From UHGV virus genome UHGV-1581813: DNA of 11,947 nucleotides; one strand, 5' to 3'. The stretch's first letter is position 1. Each line of letters starts with the position of its first letter. Source of the stretch: a virus. The position numbers and the translations under genes were made by a program. The notes beneath the pieces are model-generated. The model was not told the origin of the DNA. It saw only the letters and a list, made by a program, of their open reading frames with translations, and made no database searches. This document shows, piece after piece, positions 5,491 through 11,783 of this stretch.

Positions 5491-7371
5491 TTAATACTCC
5501 GTCACGTTTTCCTGTCGCCACGCCTCGTCATATTCCGATTTCGGCATATTGGCGATGTAGCTATATGGCGATCCTGATTCAAGTTGCAGGAACTGGTGCG
5601 ATTGCTCGTCAAGGAACAACGGGACACCACCCTCCCAACCTTCGCCGTTACGTTGTTTTTCAAGCATCAAAACAGATGCCGGAGATGCCAGTAGCTGTTC
5701 GTCCTTCTCTGACATCTTTTCACCACTCTGAACTCTCTGTAACGCTCTCTCGCGAGCCTTGTTACGCCAGATGATGAAAAGGTTGTCTGTCAGGTCTGTT
5801 ATCGCTCCAGAGCCTTTTACGTCCATTTTCCCGGTTGGTTTTTCTTCGCTGTCTCCTTTTCGCGAGTGAGTAACGAGAATGACGTGGGAGTTTGTTTTGT
5901 TTTTGAAGTCGCAAATCGAGTCAACAAACGCCTTCTGCCCGTTATAGTCATCGTCGCCTATGCCACATTTCATCAGGCTGTCGATGATGAATAACTGGAT
6001 ACCGTATCGGCGGCGAGCGTAGTCGAATATTTCGATCAGCCTGTCGGCTTTCGCCGTTCCGGTCAGGCCAAACACCCAAAGTCTTTCGTCATAAAATTTA
6101 AATGCAGAGTCAATTTCCAGCACTGGCGGCATCTTGCAGCACGTTGCCTGACGGGTAAGTCGCTTAAGGAGAATGCCTGGCTTCAGCTCAAGTGACGCGA
6201 TGCACGTCTTCACACCCTGACGCATTGCCTCAAGTGCCATATGCCCGACAACCTCCGTTTTTCCGTGACCGTTCACACCATTGACCAGCGTCAACTCTGC
6301 CTCACGGAACTGGAATTTATCTGCCAGAGATTCCCACGGTGGATTAAACAGATACTGCTGCTTGCCGTAGAAAGCGTTGATAGTGTCCTGGTAAAACTCT
6401 CGCGCACTGTAGAGTTCTTCAGGATCGAAGTAGGATGCCGTGCCGATGTACTGCCAGATTTCATCCTCGGTAACACCGTTCATCAGGCATTCGTTGATGT
6501 CTTTGTACGGCAGAGTAACAAGACGGCAACGATGTTCACCGAGTCGGCTTGCGATTTCCCTTGCGGCTTCACGACCAACATCATCAACGTCCATCGAGAT
6601 GAATATCTCCTCAAACCTGTCGAGGTTGTGATACTCAAACTCAATCCACTGTTGCTTAGCACCTTTCCCGCCACCAAACGGCACGGATAACGCCGAGATG
6701 CCGTATTGCGCATAGCTCATACAATCAATTTCGCCTTCGCAAAGCACAACCGCCCTCACGCCAGCGTCCAGAGCCTGCCATCCGAACAGACAAGGTTCGC
6801 AATCACCTTCTGCCATAATGACTTTCTTCCCGTCCGGGCGCTCAGTGCTGATTCGCTTGACCTGCAACAACTCACCATCGCGTTTGTACGGAAGCACCAG
6901 AGCATCCAGTTCTCGTTCTCCATTCCACACCTTGCCGCTGACAACCTCGTAGCGCTTTACGACTTCTGGCGATATGCCACGCGATTGCAGGTACTCAAGA
7001 TGGGATTCTGTTCTGGTAACGTAGCGGGCGATTTTCTTGCGATCAGGTCTGGAGAATTTCTTCTCACGTTTGGCATCGAAATGGTGATCGTCATCCTTGA
7101 TACCGAGAAATGCTTTCGCTTCCTGCATAGCCTGATGCAGGTTAATTCCTCGACATGCCATCCACAAATCAAGCATGTCACCGCCGTCTCCCTCAGCGAA
7201 ATCAGCCCATTTTTTCTTGCCGCTAAGGTTGACCTTAAGGCTGTTTCCCTTGTCACCGTTGACGTTACCGGCAACCCACTCATGCCCCTCTTTCTTGCCG
7301 TTCGGCAACAGGTGCGGAGCCACCCTGTCAACCTGCGCCCAAAGCAGGTCGCTAAGTTCACTTGGCGTCAT
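5491..7371 (-). CDS. Replicative primase-helicase (Toprim-like domain plus DnaB/RepA-type P-loop helicase)
   Basis: 626-aa ORF with a Toprim-like VLCEGEIDCMS motif, Walker A GVNGHGKT and Walker B LFIIDSLM. It lies immediately downstream of the O-like initiator, in place of lambda P. Confidence 0.8.
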   Translation of the reverse strand: MTPSELSDLLWAQVDRVAPHLLPNGKKEGHEWVAGNVNGDKGNSLKVNLSGKKKWADFAEGDGGDMLDLWMACRGINLHQAMQEAKAFLGIKDDDHHFDAKREKKFSRPDRKKIARYVTRTESHLEYLQSRGISPEVVKRYEVVSGKVWNGERELDALVLPYKRDGELLQVKRISTERPDGKKVIMAEGDCEPCLFGWQALDAGVRAVVLCEGEIDCMSYAQYGISALSVPFGGGKGAKQQWIEFEYHNLDRFEEIFISMDVDDVGREAAREIASRLGEHRCRLVTLPYKDINECLMNGVTEDEIWQYIGTASYFDPEELYSAREFYQDTINAFYGKQQYLFNPPWESLADKFQFREAELTLVNGVNGHGKTEVVGHMALEAMRQGVKTCIASLELKPGILLKRLTRQATCCKMPPVLEIDSAFKFYDERLWVFGLTGTAKADRLIEIFDYARRRYGIQLFIIDSLMKCGIGDDDYNGQKAFVDSICDFKNKTNSHVILVTHSRKGDSEEKPTGKMDVKGSGAITDLTDNLFIIWRNKARERALQRVQSGEKMSEKDEQLLASPASVLMLEKQRNGEGWEGGVPLFLDEQSHQFLQLESGSPYSYIANMPKSEYDEAWRQENVTEY

Positions 7372-7478
7372 GATTCCCTCAGATTGAGATTTTTAAACCA
7401 GAAATCGACAAACGAAATACTTAACCAGCCGTGGTTATAACCAGCGACCAGTAGCGATTTGATTTTTGATTTCATGGT

Positions 7479-8339
7479 TCACCTGTCGAAAAACACGTAG
7501 CCAGTTTTCGATACGGTGATTGCGGATGATGGTTTAGATTGTGGTTGAATGGTTTCTGGCTTTTCGTCGTTCCAGCGCTGACCGTTCAGGTAGCTCGATG
7601 GTAACAACCTGTCGAATCCGAACTGCTTACCATTCCTGCATGCGATGTCTTCTGCCAGCATCGTGGCAAACTCGCTTGCCGTACCCTTGGTAGTTTTACG
7701 CCATTCCCTGAACTGTGTTCTGAATGCCGTAGCTGCGTTTTTCTTCCCGGCTTTCCGCATGCCTGCACACCAGAATATTTCCTCGAATGCCTTGTCGGTT
7801 TCTTCGTGACGGTCAGGTGATTTTTCACACTCCGTCCGAACACTTTCGGACATAGTGTTTTTATTATTTCTTTTTTCTTTTGTAATAGTTTCTTTTGTGT
7901 GTCCCTGTTTTGGTGACAGCGCTGTCACCGTTTTGGTGACACTTTTTGTCACCAATGCAGTGACATTATCACCAGAGTAGTGACACCCTTCGATTTTCCA
8001 TTCTTCGATGTTCTTGTTAGGCCCGATTTGCTGGCCTTCGCGAAGGATAACCTTCATCGCGATAAGCTCATTCTTGGCCTTGTTTACCTTCTGTCTTGGC
8101 AGCCTGGTAATTTGAGCTAACTGACTATCAGAGATGCGATCCATCTTTTTACCGTAGCCGTATGTTTTACGGCATATGGCGTGGGCAACCTTGCTCTGAT
8201 TTTTCGTTAAATCTGCGCCGATAAGCTCTTCATACAGGGCATTTGCAAGACGGGTATAACCATCTTCAACTTCTGCCACACGACGCTCCACAGGCCGTTG
8301 TGAAGGCCTTAAATGTGTTACGGTTGCAAGATTAATCAT
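7479..8339 (-). CDS. Replication initiator, lambda O-like N-terminal domain
   Basis: 286-aa ORF. Its N-terminal ~110 aa (…[14 protein letters not shown]…ADLTK…[25 protein letters not shown]…GPNKNIEEW) are clearly homologous to lambda O as I recall. The gene contains the iteron array, as O contains ori-lambda. Confidence 0.85.
7858..7990. repeat. Candidate origin of replication inside the O-like gene: four GTGACA-containing iterons plus an adjacent AT-rich tract
   Basis: GTGACA occurs at 7913, 7936, 7960 and 7980 (20-24 bp spacing), each within an inverted-repeat unit such as GGTGACAGCGCTGTCACC. An AT-rich block lies at 7858-7900. The order iterons-then-AT-rich in the direction of O transcription matches ori-lambda architecture. 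Confidence 0.6.
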
Positions 8340-8478
8340 GACCTTTCTCCTTCTGCATCAGCTTCACTTTTTCCAACTCAGCCCGGAATCGACCAGGCTG
8401 CTTGAAGCTGGACAGGAAGCGATCACGTAGTATGTGTTTGTGAATTTTGTCCTGGTAAGGACTGAGTTGTTTTGTCAT
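8332..8478 (-). CDS. Unannotated small basic protein (48 aa) between cII and the O-like gene
   Basis: Not in the ORF track. ACAGGAGTAATT precedes the ATG at 8478. Product is [48 protein letters not shown]. Its stop overlaps the O-like start. The start context resembles the lambda O start context as I recall. Confidence 0.45.
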
Positions 8479-8487
8479 AATTACTCC

Positions 8488-8566
8488 TGTGGATTGATCC
8501 AGTAATGACCTCAGAATTCCATCTGGATTTGTTCAGAACGCTCGGTTGCCGCCGGGCGTTTTTTAT
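8488..8566 (+). ncRNA. oop: OOP-like antisense RNA (pO promoter to the 'to' terminator), antisense to the cII 3' end
   Basis: Plus strand has an extended -10 TGTCATAAT at 8473-8481. Downstream is a hairpin GCTCGG-UUGCCG-CCGGGC (8540-8557) followed by GTTTTTTATT. The resulting ~78-nt transcript overlaps the last ~55 nt of cII on the opposite strand, as in lambda. Confidence 0.55.
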
Positions 8567-8804
8567 TGGTGAGAATCGAAGCAACTTGTCGTGCCAATCG
8601 AGCCATGTCGTCGTCAACGACACCCCATTCAAGAACAGCAAGCAGCATTGAGAACTTTGGAATCCAATCCCTCTTCCACCTGCTGATCTGCGACTTATCA
8701 ACTCCCACAGCTTCCGCTGTCTTCTCAGTTCCAAGCATTGCGATTTTGTTAAGCAACGCACTCTCGATTCTTAGAGCCTCGTTGCGTTTGTTTGCACGAA
8801 CCAT
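8511..8804 (-). CDS. cII: Transcriptional activator CII
   Basis: From the ATG at 8804 the product is [51 protein letters not shown]..., 97 aa, matching lambda CII. The classic TAAGGAAATACTTACAT-ATG start context is present. The track ORF (start 8891) is an upstream in-frame extension across nutR. Confidence 0.9.
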
Positions 8805-8912: not shown

Positions 8913-9098
8913 TTATGCCGCTTTGCGGTAAGCGCTTTCTTGATACTTCAGGGCGCCAGCTGTAACGACTTCCAGTCGATAGGCGTCTTTCTCTGGGATG
9001 ACTTCCTTCCACTGAGAGACTGCTGCGTCGCTAATGCCTAACGCTTTAGCTACAGCACGCTGGGTTCCGAAGTGGTCGATAACATCTTTCTTGTACAT
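8913..9098 (-). CDS. cro: Cro repressor (P22-type)
   Basis: 61-aa ORF MYKKDVIDHFGTQRAVAKALGISDAAVSQWKEVIPEKDAYRLEVVTAGALKYQ... with a helix-turn-helix, divergent from the repressor gene. It resembles P22 Cro as I recall. Confidence 0.85.
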   Translation of the reverse strand: MYKKDVIDHFGTQRAVAKALGISDAAVSQWKEVIPEKDAYRLEVVTAGALKYQESAYRKAA

Positions 9099-9178: not shown

Positions 9179-9829
9179 ATGAAAACTCAATTGATGGGAG
9201 AGCGCATTCGCGCTCGGAGAAAAGAACTCAAGATCAGGCAGGCCGCACTTGGAAAGATGGTCGGCGTGTCTAATGTTGCCATATCTCAGTGGGAACGCTC
9301 TGAGACAGAGCCAAATGGAGAGAATCTTCTCGCCCTGGCTAATGCGTTGAAGTGTTCCCCTGACTATCTGATGAAAGGAGAGGAAAGTCTTTCAAACATT
9401 GCCTATCACAGTAGGCATGATCCAAGAGGGTCATACCCTCTGATTAGCTGGGTGAGCGCAGGATGCTGGATGGAAGCTGTAGAACCATATCATAAGCGTG
9501 CAATAGATAACTGGTACGATACAACCGTAGACTGTTCAGAAGATTCGTTTTGGTTGGACGTGAAGGGAGACTCAATGACGGCTCCGGCCGGTCTCAGTAT
9601 CCCTGAAGGAATGATAATACTCGTCGATCCTGAAGTAGAGCCGCGTAACGGGAAACTGGTAGTTGCAAAGCTCGAAGGAGAAAACGAGGCAACTTTCAAG
9701 AAGTTAGTTATTGATGCAGGCAGGAAGTTTCTAAAACCACTTAACCCACAATATCCGATGATCGAGATCAACGGGAACTGCAAAATCATCGGCGTAGTTG
9801 TCGATGCAAAACTAGCAAACCTTCCATAA
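9179..9829 (+). CDS. c2: Prophage repressor, P22 c2-type (HTH plus LexA-like S24 autopeptidase domain)
   Basis: 216-aa ORF MKTQLMGERIRARRKELKIRQAALGKMVGVSNVAISQWERSETEPNGENLLALANAL... with a C-terminal S24-type domain (…WLDVKGDSM…). It closely resembles the P22 C2 repressor as I recall. Confidence 0.9.
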   Translation: MKTQLMGERIRARRKELKIRQAALGKMVGVSNVAISQWERSETEPNGENLLALANALKCSPDYLMKGEESLSNIAYHSRHDPRGSYPLISWVSAGCWMEAVEPYHKRAIDNWYDTTVDCSEDSFWLDVKGDSMTAPAGLSIPEGMIILVDPEVEPRNGKLVVAKLEGENEATFKKLVIDAGRKFLKPLNPQYPMIEINGNCKIIGVVVDAKLANLP

Positions 9830-11546: not shown

Positions 11547-11618
11547 GCGCGGCGTTACCGCATACCAATTACGCTTCACTCGAGGCGTTTTTCGTTATGT
11601 ATAAATAAGGAGCACACC

Positions 11619-11783
11619 ATGCAATATGCCATTGCAGGGTGGCCTGTTGCTGGCTGCCCTTCCGAATCTTTACTTGAACGAATCACCCGTAAATTACGTG
11701 ACGGATGGAAACGCCTTATCGACATACTTAATCAGCCAGGAGTCCCAAAAAATGGATCAAACAATTATGGCTATCCAGACTAA
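11619..11783 (+). CDS. cIII: CIII (inhibitor of FtsH-mediated CII degradation)
   Basis: Not in the ORF track (54 aa). AGGAG lies 6 nt upstream of the ATG at 11619. Product is [54 protein letters not shown], matching lambda CIII as I recall. Confidence 0.75.
   Translation: MQYAIAGWPVAGCPSESLLERITRKLRDGWKRLIDILNQPGVPKNGSNNYGYPD

Follow-up and report, generated by a model that had tools for sequence, protein, structure and literature searches.

Genes and antisense elements between cII and the initiator

The window, the whole 11,947 nt stretch of virus genome UHGV-1581813 that was analysed, carries a cII gene, a small ORF and an O-like replication initiator gene on its minus strand, with the elements of an OOP-type antisense RNA on the plus strand. 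The features at this junction are as follows.

7479..8339 (-), O-like replication initiator gene, 286 aa (PF04492, E=1.1e-37; TIGR01610)
8332..8339 (-), 8 nt overlap ATGATTAA of the small ORF and the O-like gene (O-like ATG at 8339-8337, small-ORF TAA at 8334-8332)
8332..8478 (-), small ORF, assigned as a DUF2740 gene (ORF listing, PF10872, tblastn, dN/dS, AlphaFold2)
8346..8352 (-), Shine-Dalgarno sequence of the O-like gene, AAGGAG (sequence)
8453..8458 (+), candidate weak pO -35, TGGTAA, with a 17 nt spacer, within small-ORF codons 7-9 (read from the sequence)
8473..8481 (+), pO extended -10, TGTCATAAT, overlapping the small-ORF start codon (register identity to lambda pO)
8484..8488 (-), Shine-Dalgarno sequence of the small ORF, AGGAG (sequence; alignment)
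~8489..8565 (+), OOP antisense RNA, ~77 nt (three differences from lambda in the RNA, alignment A4)
8511..8804 (-), cII gene, 97 aa (Phage_CII, E=1.4e-47; BLASTP against lambda CII)
8535..8565 (+), tO intrinsic terminator, a 12-pair hairpin and T-run within the cII 3' end (terminator scan; identical to lambda)

The small ORF comprises an ATG start and 48 codons followed by TAA. Its 48 aa product contains 12 K+R and 6 D+E residues, with a pI of 10.1 and a net charge of about +5.8, and AGGAG precedes the ATG (8478-8476) by 5 nt, bearing out the preliminary description of a basic ORF with a strong ribosome-binding site. This AGGAG was unchanged across an alignment with lambda, P22, HK022 and an Erwinia phage, and is the element used by gene O in lambda. 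The small-ORF stop overlaps the O-like start, as had also been described; the minus strand reads GGT CAT GAT TAA in the frame of the small ORF and ATG ATT AAT in that of the O-like gene. The Shine-Dalgarno sequence of the O-like gene lies within the last small-ORF codons (K-E-K-G-H-D), 7 nt before the O ATG, and a purine-rich counterpart was kept in all diverged relatives. The initiator itself has an N-terminal Phage_rep_O domain, with four iteron-like repeats at 7900-7985 within its gene.

A 33 bp lambdoid block, ACTGGATCAATCCACAGGAGTAATTATGACAAA, published by Hayes et al. 2012 (PMC3349717), was matched exactly at 8471-8503 (-), a match produced by 0/200 shuffles. The oop 5' end, the pO -10 and the translation start of the small ORF all fall within this block, which is universal among lambdoid phages and in lambda provides the start of gene O itself. 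The extended -10 that had been read on the plus strand across the small-ORF start is indeed present, matching base for base the lambda pO -10, which itself overlaps the start codon of lambda O. The two promoters differ in the part preceding the -10, that of the window lying within codons of the small ORF and that of lambda within O codons; because this upstream part lies in small-ORF codons, the -35 departs from that of lambda (TTGAGT) and is weak, its TGGTAA matching the consensus at 3/6 positions. P22-type phages also have a pO -35 unlike that of lambda (Hayes et al. 2012, PMC3349717). A simple sigma-70 consensus scan did not call pO, and its activity is predicted from homology to lambda pO and from the extended -10.

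The tO hairpin at 8535-8562 is followed by TTTTTT, in agreement with the earlier proposal of an OOP-like antisense RNA ending at a conserved terminator within cII. The predicted RNA is complementary to the intergenic leader between cII and the small ORF and to the final 55 nt of cII including its stop codon (8511-8565); it thus has the same cII overlap as lambda oop, along with the same -10 and terminator. The 79 nt stretch holding it (8489-8567) folds at -28.4 kcal/mol (z = -3.1). An Rfam search returned no OOP family, the sole sub-threshold match being to a Burkholderia sRNA (E=0.32) and regarded as noise. The cII product is 99 % identical to lambda CII (95/96 by BLASTP), and the window has its own cIII with a thermoregulator element. 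As far as can be judged from sequence, OOP and pO here are an ordinary lambda-type cII antisense system, and their sharing of the small-ORF 5' end reflects nothing more than the use of one conserved block by both. The earlier statement that both the OOP promoter and its transcript overlap the small ORF holds for the promoter, whose -10 and -35 region lie on approximately the first nine codons, and fails for the transcript, which begins 11 nt before the ATG, immediately next to the Shine-Dalgarno sequence.

Family membership and coding status of the small ORF

The small ORF is, by homology, a DUF2740 family gene and a homologue of P22 ORF48, HK620 hkaW and HK022 orf48. Pfam PF10872 (DUF2740) matched at E=1.6e-28 and 98.6 bits across profile positions 1-43/43, the gathering cutoff being 27 bits, and PHROG 1913 matched at E=2.7e-28. 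A tblastn search with the small ORF found the family in 127 phage records, and annotated homologues comprise P22 ORF48, HK620 hkaW, an HK022 hypothetical protein, ES18 gp58 and epsilon34 gp49; PGAP names the family 'DUF2740 family protein'. The length of 48 aa (family range about 46-50) and the core HK[NH]I[LI]RD...E[LW][ED].VK are features of the family, whose basic character is kept throughout (pI 9.8-10.6), and residues K3, H13, K14, I16, D19, R20, L22, E34, E36, K39 and H47 were invariant in alignment A1. A 235 nt query comprising the small ORF, the OOP region and the cII 3' end had at least a partial match in 1,971/5,426 complete E. coli genomes and was at least 80 % covered in 250. Separately, PHROG 1913 calls the family 'tail protein', an annotation error whose label has been copied into RefSeq phage records.

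The layout cII-oop-orf-O-P was already described by Hayes et al. 2012 (PMC3349717); the small ORF and its arrangement with OOP were therefore correctly recognized but are not new, this being a catalogued lambdoid gene. The suggestion that the ORF had been inserted between cII and O puts the comparison backwards, given that the slot between oop and O is occupied in many lambdoid phages, by DUF2740 genes in P22, HK022, HK620, ES18, epsilon34 and Stx2 phages, and that orf48 is called 'naturally missing' from lambda (Hayes et al. 2012, PMC3349717). Nor did the ORF prove to be a remnant of an O N-terminus. The tblastn search found only DUF2740 genes, and not lambda; sharing with lambda O is limited to the ribosome-binding site and first two to three codons (ATGACAAA), which are part of the conserved 33 bp block.

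Alignment with relatives, which had been proposed as a way to separate a conserved gene from a remnant, showed a conserved gene. Among the 91 related loci from which the small ORF was extractable, an intact frame of 47-48 codons was present in 91/91. Among diverged pairs (dS of 0.3-1.8), almost all gave dN/dS estimates of 0.10-0.35, and two gave 0.46-0.49. The third codon position was the most variable (41/46 columns), one invariant Leu was encoded by five different codons and one invariant Ile by three, and distant members of 35-55 % identity kept the HK[NH]I[LI]RD motif. Intact frames, low dN/dS and invariant residues with multiple codons together indicate that the small ORF truly encodes a protein, and the substitution pattern points to selection on the peptide itself, not only on its translation. 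Mean pairwise identity was ~0.95 within the small ORF and 0.5-0.65 outside it, a contrast that is inflated because the 80 viral loci were picked by similarity to the small ORF. No report of translation or of a phenotype for the DUF2740 family, and no Ribo-seq or proteomic report on a DUF2740 protein, was found within the searchable literature.

These data also bear on the reading that the small ORF is not a gene, its frame being open by chance and its conservation owed to pO upstream elements or to DNA or RNA structure. The pO elements cover approximately the first nine codons, and the near-palindrome GTCCTTACCAGGAC at 8449-8462 is conserved. Set against this are the intact frame at every locus, the codon-position pattern and dN/dS, the strong family HMM match and the strong Shine-Dalgarno sequence; the substitution pattern already contradicts the reading, and we regard it as highly improbable. 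Conserved mRNA structure as the cause of conservation was likewise unsupported. In the window the mRNA has a fold z-score of -2.9, and its minimum free energy (MFE) structure pairs both translation starts over 15 bp. RNAalifold detected no covariation (term -0.25; 1/32 pairs compensatory), the central hairpin is broken in the Erwinia phage, and the junction sequence usual in the family, ATGAGTAA, weakens the pairing of the two starts.

Linkage to the initiator and candidate functions

Across the 91 loci the overlap between the small ORF and the initiator was ATGAGTAA in 89, ATGATTAA in the window only and ATGGATAA in one. The DUF2740 gene also lies directly upstream of the initiator and overlaps its start in P22, HK022, an Erwinia phage and PhiR12_1, and in distant relatives it overlaps the initiator by 4 or 8 nt, three of these members overlapping an initiator whose protein begins MSN. 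The 8 nt overlap of the window is probably a site of translational coupling, which may not be needed since the initiator has a good Shine-Dalgarno sequence of its own (AAGGAG, 7 nt spacing). One identical 147 nt allele adjoined Phage_rep_O-type initiators in 46 loci and HK022-type initiators, which are without the Phage_rep_O domain, in 27 loci, and occurred beside no fewer than 29 different cII C-termini. The helicase partner encoded downstream was a gp4-like primase/helicase, a DnaB-like helicase or a lambda P-type loader. A rule that the gene never occurs with a P-type loader was true in the 96 loci examined and is refuted by PhiR12_1 (cII-DUF2740-O-P-Ren).

In most loci the DUF2740 gene lies 18-36 nt downstream of cII. 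In one distant relative (L095), ORFs of 30 and 249 aa separate the two and the overlap with the initiator start is kept, and in four diverged relatives the sequence 5' of the shared Shine-Dalgarno sequence and ATG bears no relation to the 5' region of a lambda-type oop. The constant overlap with the initiator, the pairing with two unrelated initiator families and three kinds of helicase, and the separation in L095 place the gene in the replication module and not in the cII/OOP node. Comparison of these loci indicates that the small ORF opens the replication module as its first cistron and goes with the initiator gene rather than with cII. The preliminary description offered replication or the lysis-lysogeny decision as what an ORF embedded in the cII/OOP node might modulate; the linkage favours the former, and of these two guesses at function that of embedding in the node is the weaker.

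A protein acting at that node, as a CIII-like stabilizer of CII or a Rop-like aid to OOP-cII pairing, seems to us quite unlikely. It would suit the proximity to cII in most loci, the overlap of pO with the small-ORF start and the abutment of OOP on its Shine-Dalgarno sequence, and a basic helical hairpin would be apt for RNA binding. The locus where the gene stands apart from cII still overlapping the initiator, the four relatives lacking a lambda-type oop 5' region and the many cII alleles served by one allele of the gene all speak against it, and the window already has a cIII with its thermoregulator. A CIII-like FtsH inhibitor, considered on account of an LRD...QPG resemblance, was rejected, as hhalign against lambda CIII gave a probability of 0.5 % over 11 aligned columns. 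PDB sequence and fold searches matched neither Rop nor another protein.

AlphaFold2 modelled the small-ORF protein as a two-helix hairpin (helices 7-23 and 28-44, pLDDT 79.7). Fold searches with this model gave no informative structural match, and neither a PDB sequence profile search nor NCBIfam nor PADLOC returned a meaningful match. Nucleic-acid binding by the protein we infer from its charge only. The linkage to the initiator gene and one allele serving two initiator families and three kinds of helicase, with the peptide itself under selection, suggest a generic partner, such as a host factor or nucleic acid.

The best explanation, to which we give roughly even chances of being correct, is that the ORF48/DUF2740 gene, as first cistron of the replication module, is coupled to the initiator and probably acts in trans on a common partner. 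Transcripts from pR would be translated from the conserved AGGAG and ATG of the small ORF, and ribosomes finishing it would stop 5 nt past the initiator ATG, where they could re-initiate or keep the site unfolded. Termination beside the initiator ATG would mean that small protein and initiator are made together at a fixed ratio. The protein would most likely act in trans on a partner common to all the modules, which could be DNA, RNA or one of the replication factors of the host; that it contacts one phage initiator specifically is less probable. A more specific form, possible if doubtful, makes the DUF2740 protein a trans-acting, nucleic-acid-binding helical hairpin at a fixed ratio to the initiator that tunes the start of replication or, Rop-like, the pO/OOP-cII interaction, with the gene doubling as a conserved recombination linker for the exchange of immunity and replication modules.

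Alternatively, the gene may be a purely cis-acting leader or adapter, in which translation alone matters: it would deliver ribosomes and space the initiator start from pO and OOP, its DNA would be a homologous linker for swapping immunity and replication modules, and its peptide would have no function. Several observations fit, including a stop/start overlap kept over dS > 1, a C-terminal K-x-K-G-H-E dictated by the initiator Shine-Dalgarno sequence and ATG, the MFE pairing of the two starts in the window, and an unrelated small basic ORF that fills the slot and likewise overlaps O in HK97. The identical 147 nt block beside varied cII C-termini and two initiator families, with identity falling outside it, fits as well, an island of identity that is partly an ascertainment effect. 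This reading is nonetheless rather unlikely given a dN/dS well below 1, multi-codon invariant residues in the middle of the ORF far from both starts, the HK[NH]ILRD motif retained by distant members, and a fold that is without covariation in RNAalifold and has its central hairpin broken in the Erwinia phage.

The gene might also encode a host-directed accessory protein for anti-defence or host takeover, a moron-like rider in the early-right operon. Its small size, the lack of a detectable homologue of known function, its module-boundary position, its indifference to initiator and helicase type and its dispensability in lambda are in keeping with such a role. Accessory genes tend to evolve fast and to vary in position, whereas the DUF2740 gene is fixed in position, length and overlap and has low dN/dS, and PADLOC gave no match. 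The 'orf48' equated with gnarl1, the O-antigen modifier of Silas et al., bears a library number and is reported in those screens from lytic phages, and was set apart by that description. We consider a host-directed role unlikely.

The feature is ordinary for lambdoid phages, being annotated in P22, HK022, HK620 and many prophages. The small protein occurs in 127 phage records, and the 235 nt region that contains its gene with the neighbouring OOP and cII end has at least a partial match in roughly one in three complete E. coli genomes. For experimenters, the relevant points are that the gene follows the initiator and not cII, that one allele serves two initiator families and three helicase strategies, and that selection acts on the peptide itself. 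If true, the trans-acting hairpin reading would assign a role to a gene that is among the most widespread uncharacterized ones in the lambdoid early-right operon.

Comparison with related phages and plasmid leader peptides

The small-ORF protein is 83 % identical to P22 ORF48 and 98 % identical to the HK022 and HK620 proteins, whose genes have the same length, occupy the same slot between cII/c1 and the initiator and have the same 8 nt overlap. The window differs in its last codon, GAT (Asp) where the P22/HK620/HK022 family has GAG (Glu), and in its junction, ATGATTAA in place of ATGAGTAA. Its initiator is followed by a 35 aa ORF and a gp4-like primase/helicase, and not by a DnaB-like helicase. 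In HK97, the slot between oop and O holds gp53, a basic protein of 53 aa (pI 10.7) that uses the same ribosome-binding site and overlaps the O start by 14 nt. The first ~11 codons are common to both genes (MTK..YQ[DE]K), and beyond residue 11 gp53 is unrelated to DUF2740 (hhalign probability 0.6 %, no Pfam match). Since replication proceeds well in lambda and its close relatives, which lack the DUF2740 gene, and HK97 has an unrelated ORF in the slot, the function of that gene is dispensable or replaceable.

The arrangement also resembles that of tap-repA with CopA in plasmid R1 and of repY-repZ with Inc RNA in ColIb-P9, where leader peptides are coupled to initiators under antisense-RNA control. 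As in those systems, the stop of a short ORF overlaps the initiator start (ATGATTAA here), and a small antisense RNA pairs beside the ribosome-binding site of the leader. The target known for OOP is cII rather than the initiator. In the plasmids the sequence of the peptide is unimportant and the Shine-Dalgarno sequence of the initiator is sequestered. In contrast, no conserved sequestering structure was found here by RNAalifold, the initiator has a consensus Shine-Dalgarno sequence that is probably exposed, and the DUF2740 peptide is under purifying selection.

Gene content of the window and identity of the small ORF

The window represents the early region of a lambdoid phage or prophage, in reverse orientation, with the following features.

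11606-11664 (+), lambda cIII thermoregulator RNA element (Rfam RF01804, full-length match, 88.5 bits)
9179-9829 (+), P22 c2-type repressor
8913-9098 (-), P22-type cro
8511-8804 (-), cII, 99 % identity with lambda CII
8332-8478 (-), small ORF (DUF2740)
7479-8339 (-), O-like initiator with an N-terminal Phage_rep_O domain
7900-7918, 7923-7941, 7947-7965 and 7967-7985, iteron-like repeats within the O-like gene
7368-7475 (-), 35-aa ORF (MKSKIKSLLVAGYNHGWLSISFVDFWFKNLNLRES) between the O-like and primase/helicase genes
5491-7371 (-), Toprim/DnaB-type primase-helicase, 626 aa

The thermoregulator was the sole above-threshold Rfam match in the window and shows that the phage carries a cIII of its own. 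The four 19-nt repeats (TGTCNCC-N6-GTGACA) occupy the place where a lambda-type module would be expected to have its origin. The stop of the 35-aa ORF overlaps the primase/helicase start, and a near-identical copy was present at the same position in 47 related loci; searches of Pfam, NCBIfam and PADLOC returned no match to it. Gene types in the window are mixed, with a lambda-type cII as opposed to P22-type cro and repressor genes. A mosaic joint lies at approximately 8503-8515, in the 5' part of oop adjoining a conserved 33-bp block: to its left the O gene and small ORF match mEp043 and Sf101 at 99 %, and to its right the 99 % matches of cII, cro and repressor are to CUS-3, JEP4 and Gally.

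The small ORF is a known and annotated feature. It matched Pfam DUF2740 with 98.6 bits (cutoff 27), carries the PGAP name 'DUF2740 family protein', and was found by tblastn in 127 phage records, annotated as P22 ORF48, HK620 hkaW, HK022 hypothetical protein, VT2-Sakai H0097 or 'DUF2740'; ES18 gp58 and epsilon34 gp49 were covered by DNA match. A 235-nt query running from the small ORF through the OOP region into the 3' end of cII matched at least partially in 1,971 of the 5,426 complete E. coli genomes, 250 of them with at least 80 % coverage. The family is narrow: word-indexed searching recovered 54 clusters from 5.8 billion proteins, and exhaustive profile searching about 20 from 1.84 billion representatives. 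Named members were all enterobacterial or from Erwinia, with the exception of a single 386-bp contig bearing the label Xanthomonas pisi. In PHROG 1913 the family is called 'tail protein', which looks like an annotation error because the gene is small and located in the early replication operon; the label has spread to many RefSeq phage annotations (e.g. NC_019706, NC_027398, NC_070949).

The literature searched contained no mention of DUF2740, and P22 orf48 figured there solely as a feature on maps or a landmark for cloning. It is stated as not required for prophage maintenance, and it forms part of a functional P22 phagemid replicon, in a study that did not examine whether it was needed there. 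In the name 'orf48 = gnarl1' used by Silas et al., orf48 is a library number, and the gene was reported there in lytic phages.

The pO promoter and OOP RNA

The preliminary description was accurate in its observations and partly right in their interpretation. The ORF is indeed basic, with 12 K+R and six D+E among 48 codons and a pI of 10.1, and its ATG follows a strong ribosome-binding site (AGGAG) at a spacing of 5 nt. Its TAA overlaps the O-like ATG in ATGATTAA, as had been described. The proposed extended -10 across the ORF start, TGTCATAAT at 8473-8481 (+), aligned base for base with that of lambda pO; the 77 nt downstream differed from lambda oop at three positions, and the terminator hairpin (8535-8562) and T-run were the same as lambda's. 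The 33-bp lambdoid block used by Hayes et al. 2012 (PMC3349717) to find this locus in 21 lambdoid phages matched exactly at 8471-8503, and none of 200 shuffles did so. The pO -35 is weak (TGGTAA), and a consensus promoter scan did not call pO.

Overlap of the ORF by both promoter and transcript had been claimed, but only the former held: pO overlies the first codons, whereas the start of the OOP RNA is 11 nt upstream of the ATG, its first (5') nucleotide pairing with the base immediately 5' of the Shine-Dalgarno (SD) sequence. A near-palindrome, GTCCTTACCAGGAC, lies at 8449-8462 (codons 6-10), at and just upstream of the candidate pO -35 hexamer. It was retained in nine diverged relatives and is a perfect palindrome in P22 (GTCCTGACCAGGAC), and a scan flagged it as resembling a plus-strand terminator. 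It might serve for protein binding or simply reflect coding constraint.

Peptide-level selection and linkage to the initiator

Frame disruption, sought in relatives as had been suggested, was not seen: the frame was intact, at 47-48 codons, in all 91 related loci from which the ORF could be extracted. Among pairs with a dS of 0.3-1.8, nearly all had dN/dS ratios of 0.10-0.35 and two had ratios of 0.46-0.49. In a codon alignment including three distant members, the third position was the most variable, and five different codons were used for invariant Leu22 and three for invariant Ile16. Members of only 35-55 % identity still carried the core HK[NH]I[LI]RD, which lies in the first predicted helix. 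RNAalifold found no covariation (term -0.25, compensatory pairs 1/32), and the central RNA hairpin was broken in the Erwinia phage. Together these alignments indicate that selection acts on the peptide, except at the six or so C-terminal residues (K-x-K-G-H-E), where the initiator SD and ATG set the sequence. The DUF2740 ORF is thus a real gene encoding a conserved, basic peptide with a predicted two-helix hairpin, and that it is not a gene is extremely improbable. A leader or recombination adapter that acts purely in cis is unlikely, being weakened by this peptide-level selection.

The order cII, DUF2740 gene, initiator was kept with an 8-nt overlap in P22, HK022, the Erwinia phage and PhiR12_1. 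The junction was ATGAGTAA in 89 of the 91 loci, so that the initiator starts MSN; the others were ATGGATAA (one locus) and ATGATTAA (this window). The latter, at 8332-8339, was unique to the window, making the last ORF residue Asp and initiator residue 2 Ile, and it makes the two translation starts perfectly complementary over 10 bp in the MFE fold (UAAUUAUGAC / GUCAUGAUUA; 8332-8339 and 8476-8490). Three distant members (P0056, P0062, P0071) overlapped by 4 or 8 nt an initiator starting MSN. In one related locus (L095), a 30-aa ORF and a 249-aa gene separate cII from the DUF2740 gene, and the initiator overlap is retained. The stop/start overlap is therefore conserved even away from cII, and the gene belongs, as first cistron, to the replication module and not to the cII/OOP node in which it had been proposed to be embedded. 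A role in that node is very unlikely, given L095, the comparison with CIII and the pairing of a single allele with many cII alleles.

An identical 147-nt allele was present in 76 loci, alongside at least 29 different cII C-termini; the initiator was of the Phage_rep_O type in 46 and of the HK022 type, without that domain, in 27. Helicase partners were a gp4-like primase-helicase, a DnaB-like helicase or a lambda P-type loader, and the gene is thus independent of initiator and helicase type. The idea that it avoids P-type modules was ruled out by PhiR12_1. In four loci (L002, L011, L095, L096), the first 12 or so initiator residues after MSN were mosaic across families (e.g. MSNVRKISDYR in a Phage_rep_O-type protein, MSNVLRISDFR in an HK022-type one), suggesting that the exchangeable linker may reach slightly into the initiator gene.

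Proposed role and comparison with lambda and HK97

We propose that ribosomes would load at the conserved SD of the small ORF and terminate 5 nt beyond the initiator ATG, coupling the two cistrons, and that the peptide would then act in trans on a target common to all modules, be it DNA, RNA or a host replication factor. Coupling and a generic trans-acting function together have, in our estimation, an even chance of being correct; a host-directed accessory protein seems quite unlikely. What is added here is the linkage to the initiator rather than cII, the occurrence of one allele with initiators of two families and with three helicase strategies, and selection at the peptide level. These results would not surprise a specialist, and help in the design of knockout or recoding work.

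Alignment of the cII-to-O junction, as had been advised, supported a conserved DUF2740 gene sharing only the SD, ATG and next five bases (ATGACAAA) with lambda, where the same element starts gene O, as previously stated by Hayes et al. 2012 (PMC3349717); beyond it the sequences part ways. In HK97, the oop-to-O slot holds an unrelated 53-aa basic ORF (gp53; 1221-1382 in the HK97 locus, L097) that has only its first 11 or so codons in common with the DUF2740 ORF; its overlap with the O start is 14 nt. Occupation by a small, basic, overlapping ORF thus seems to be a general property of the slot.
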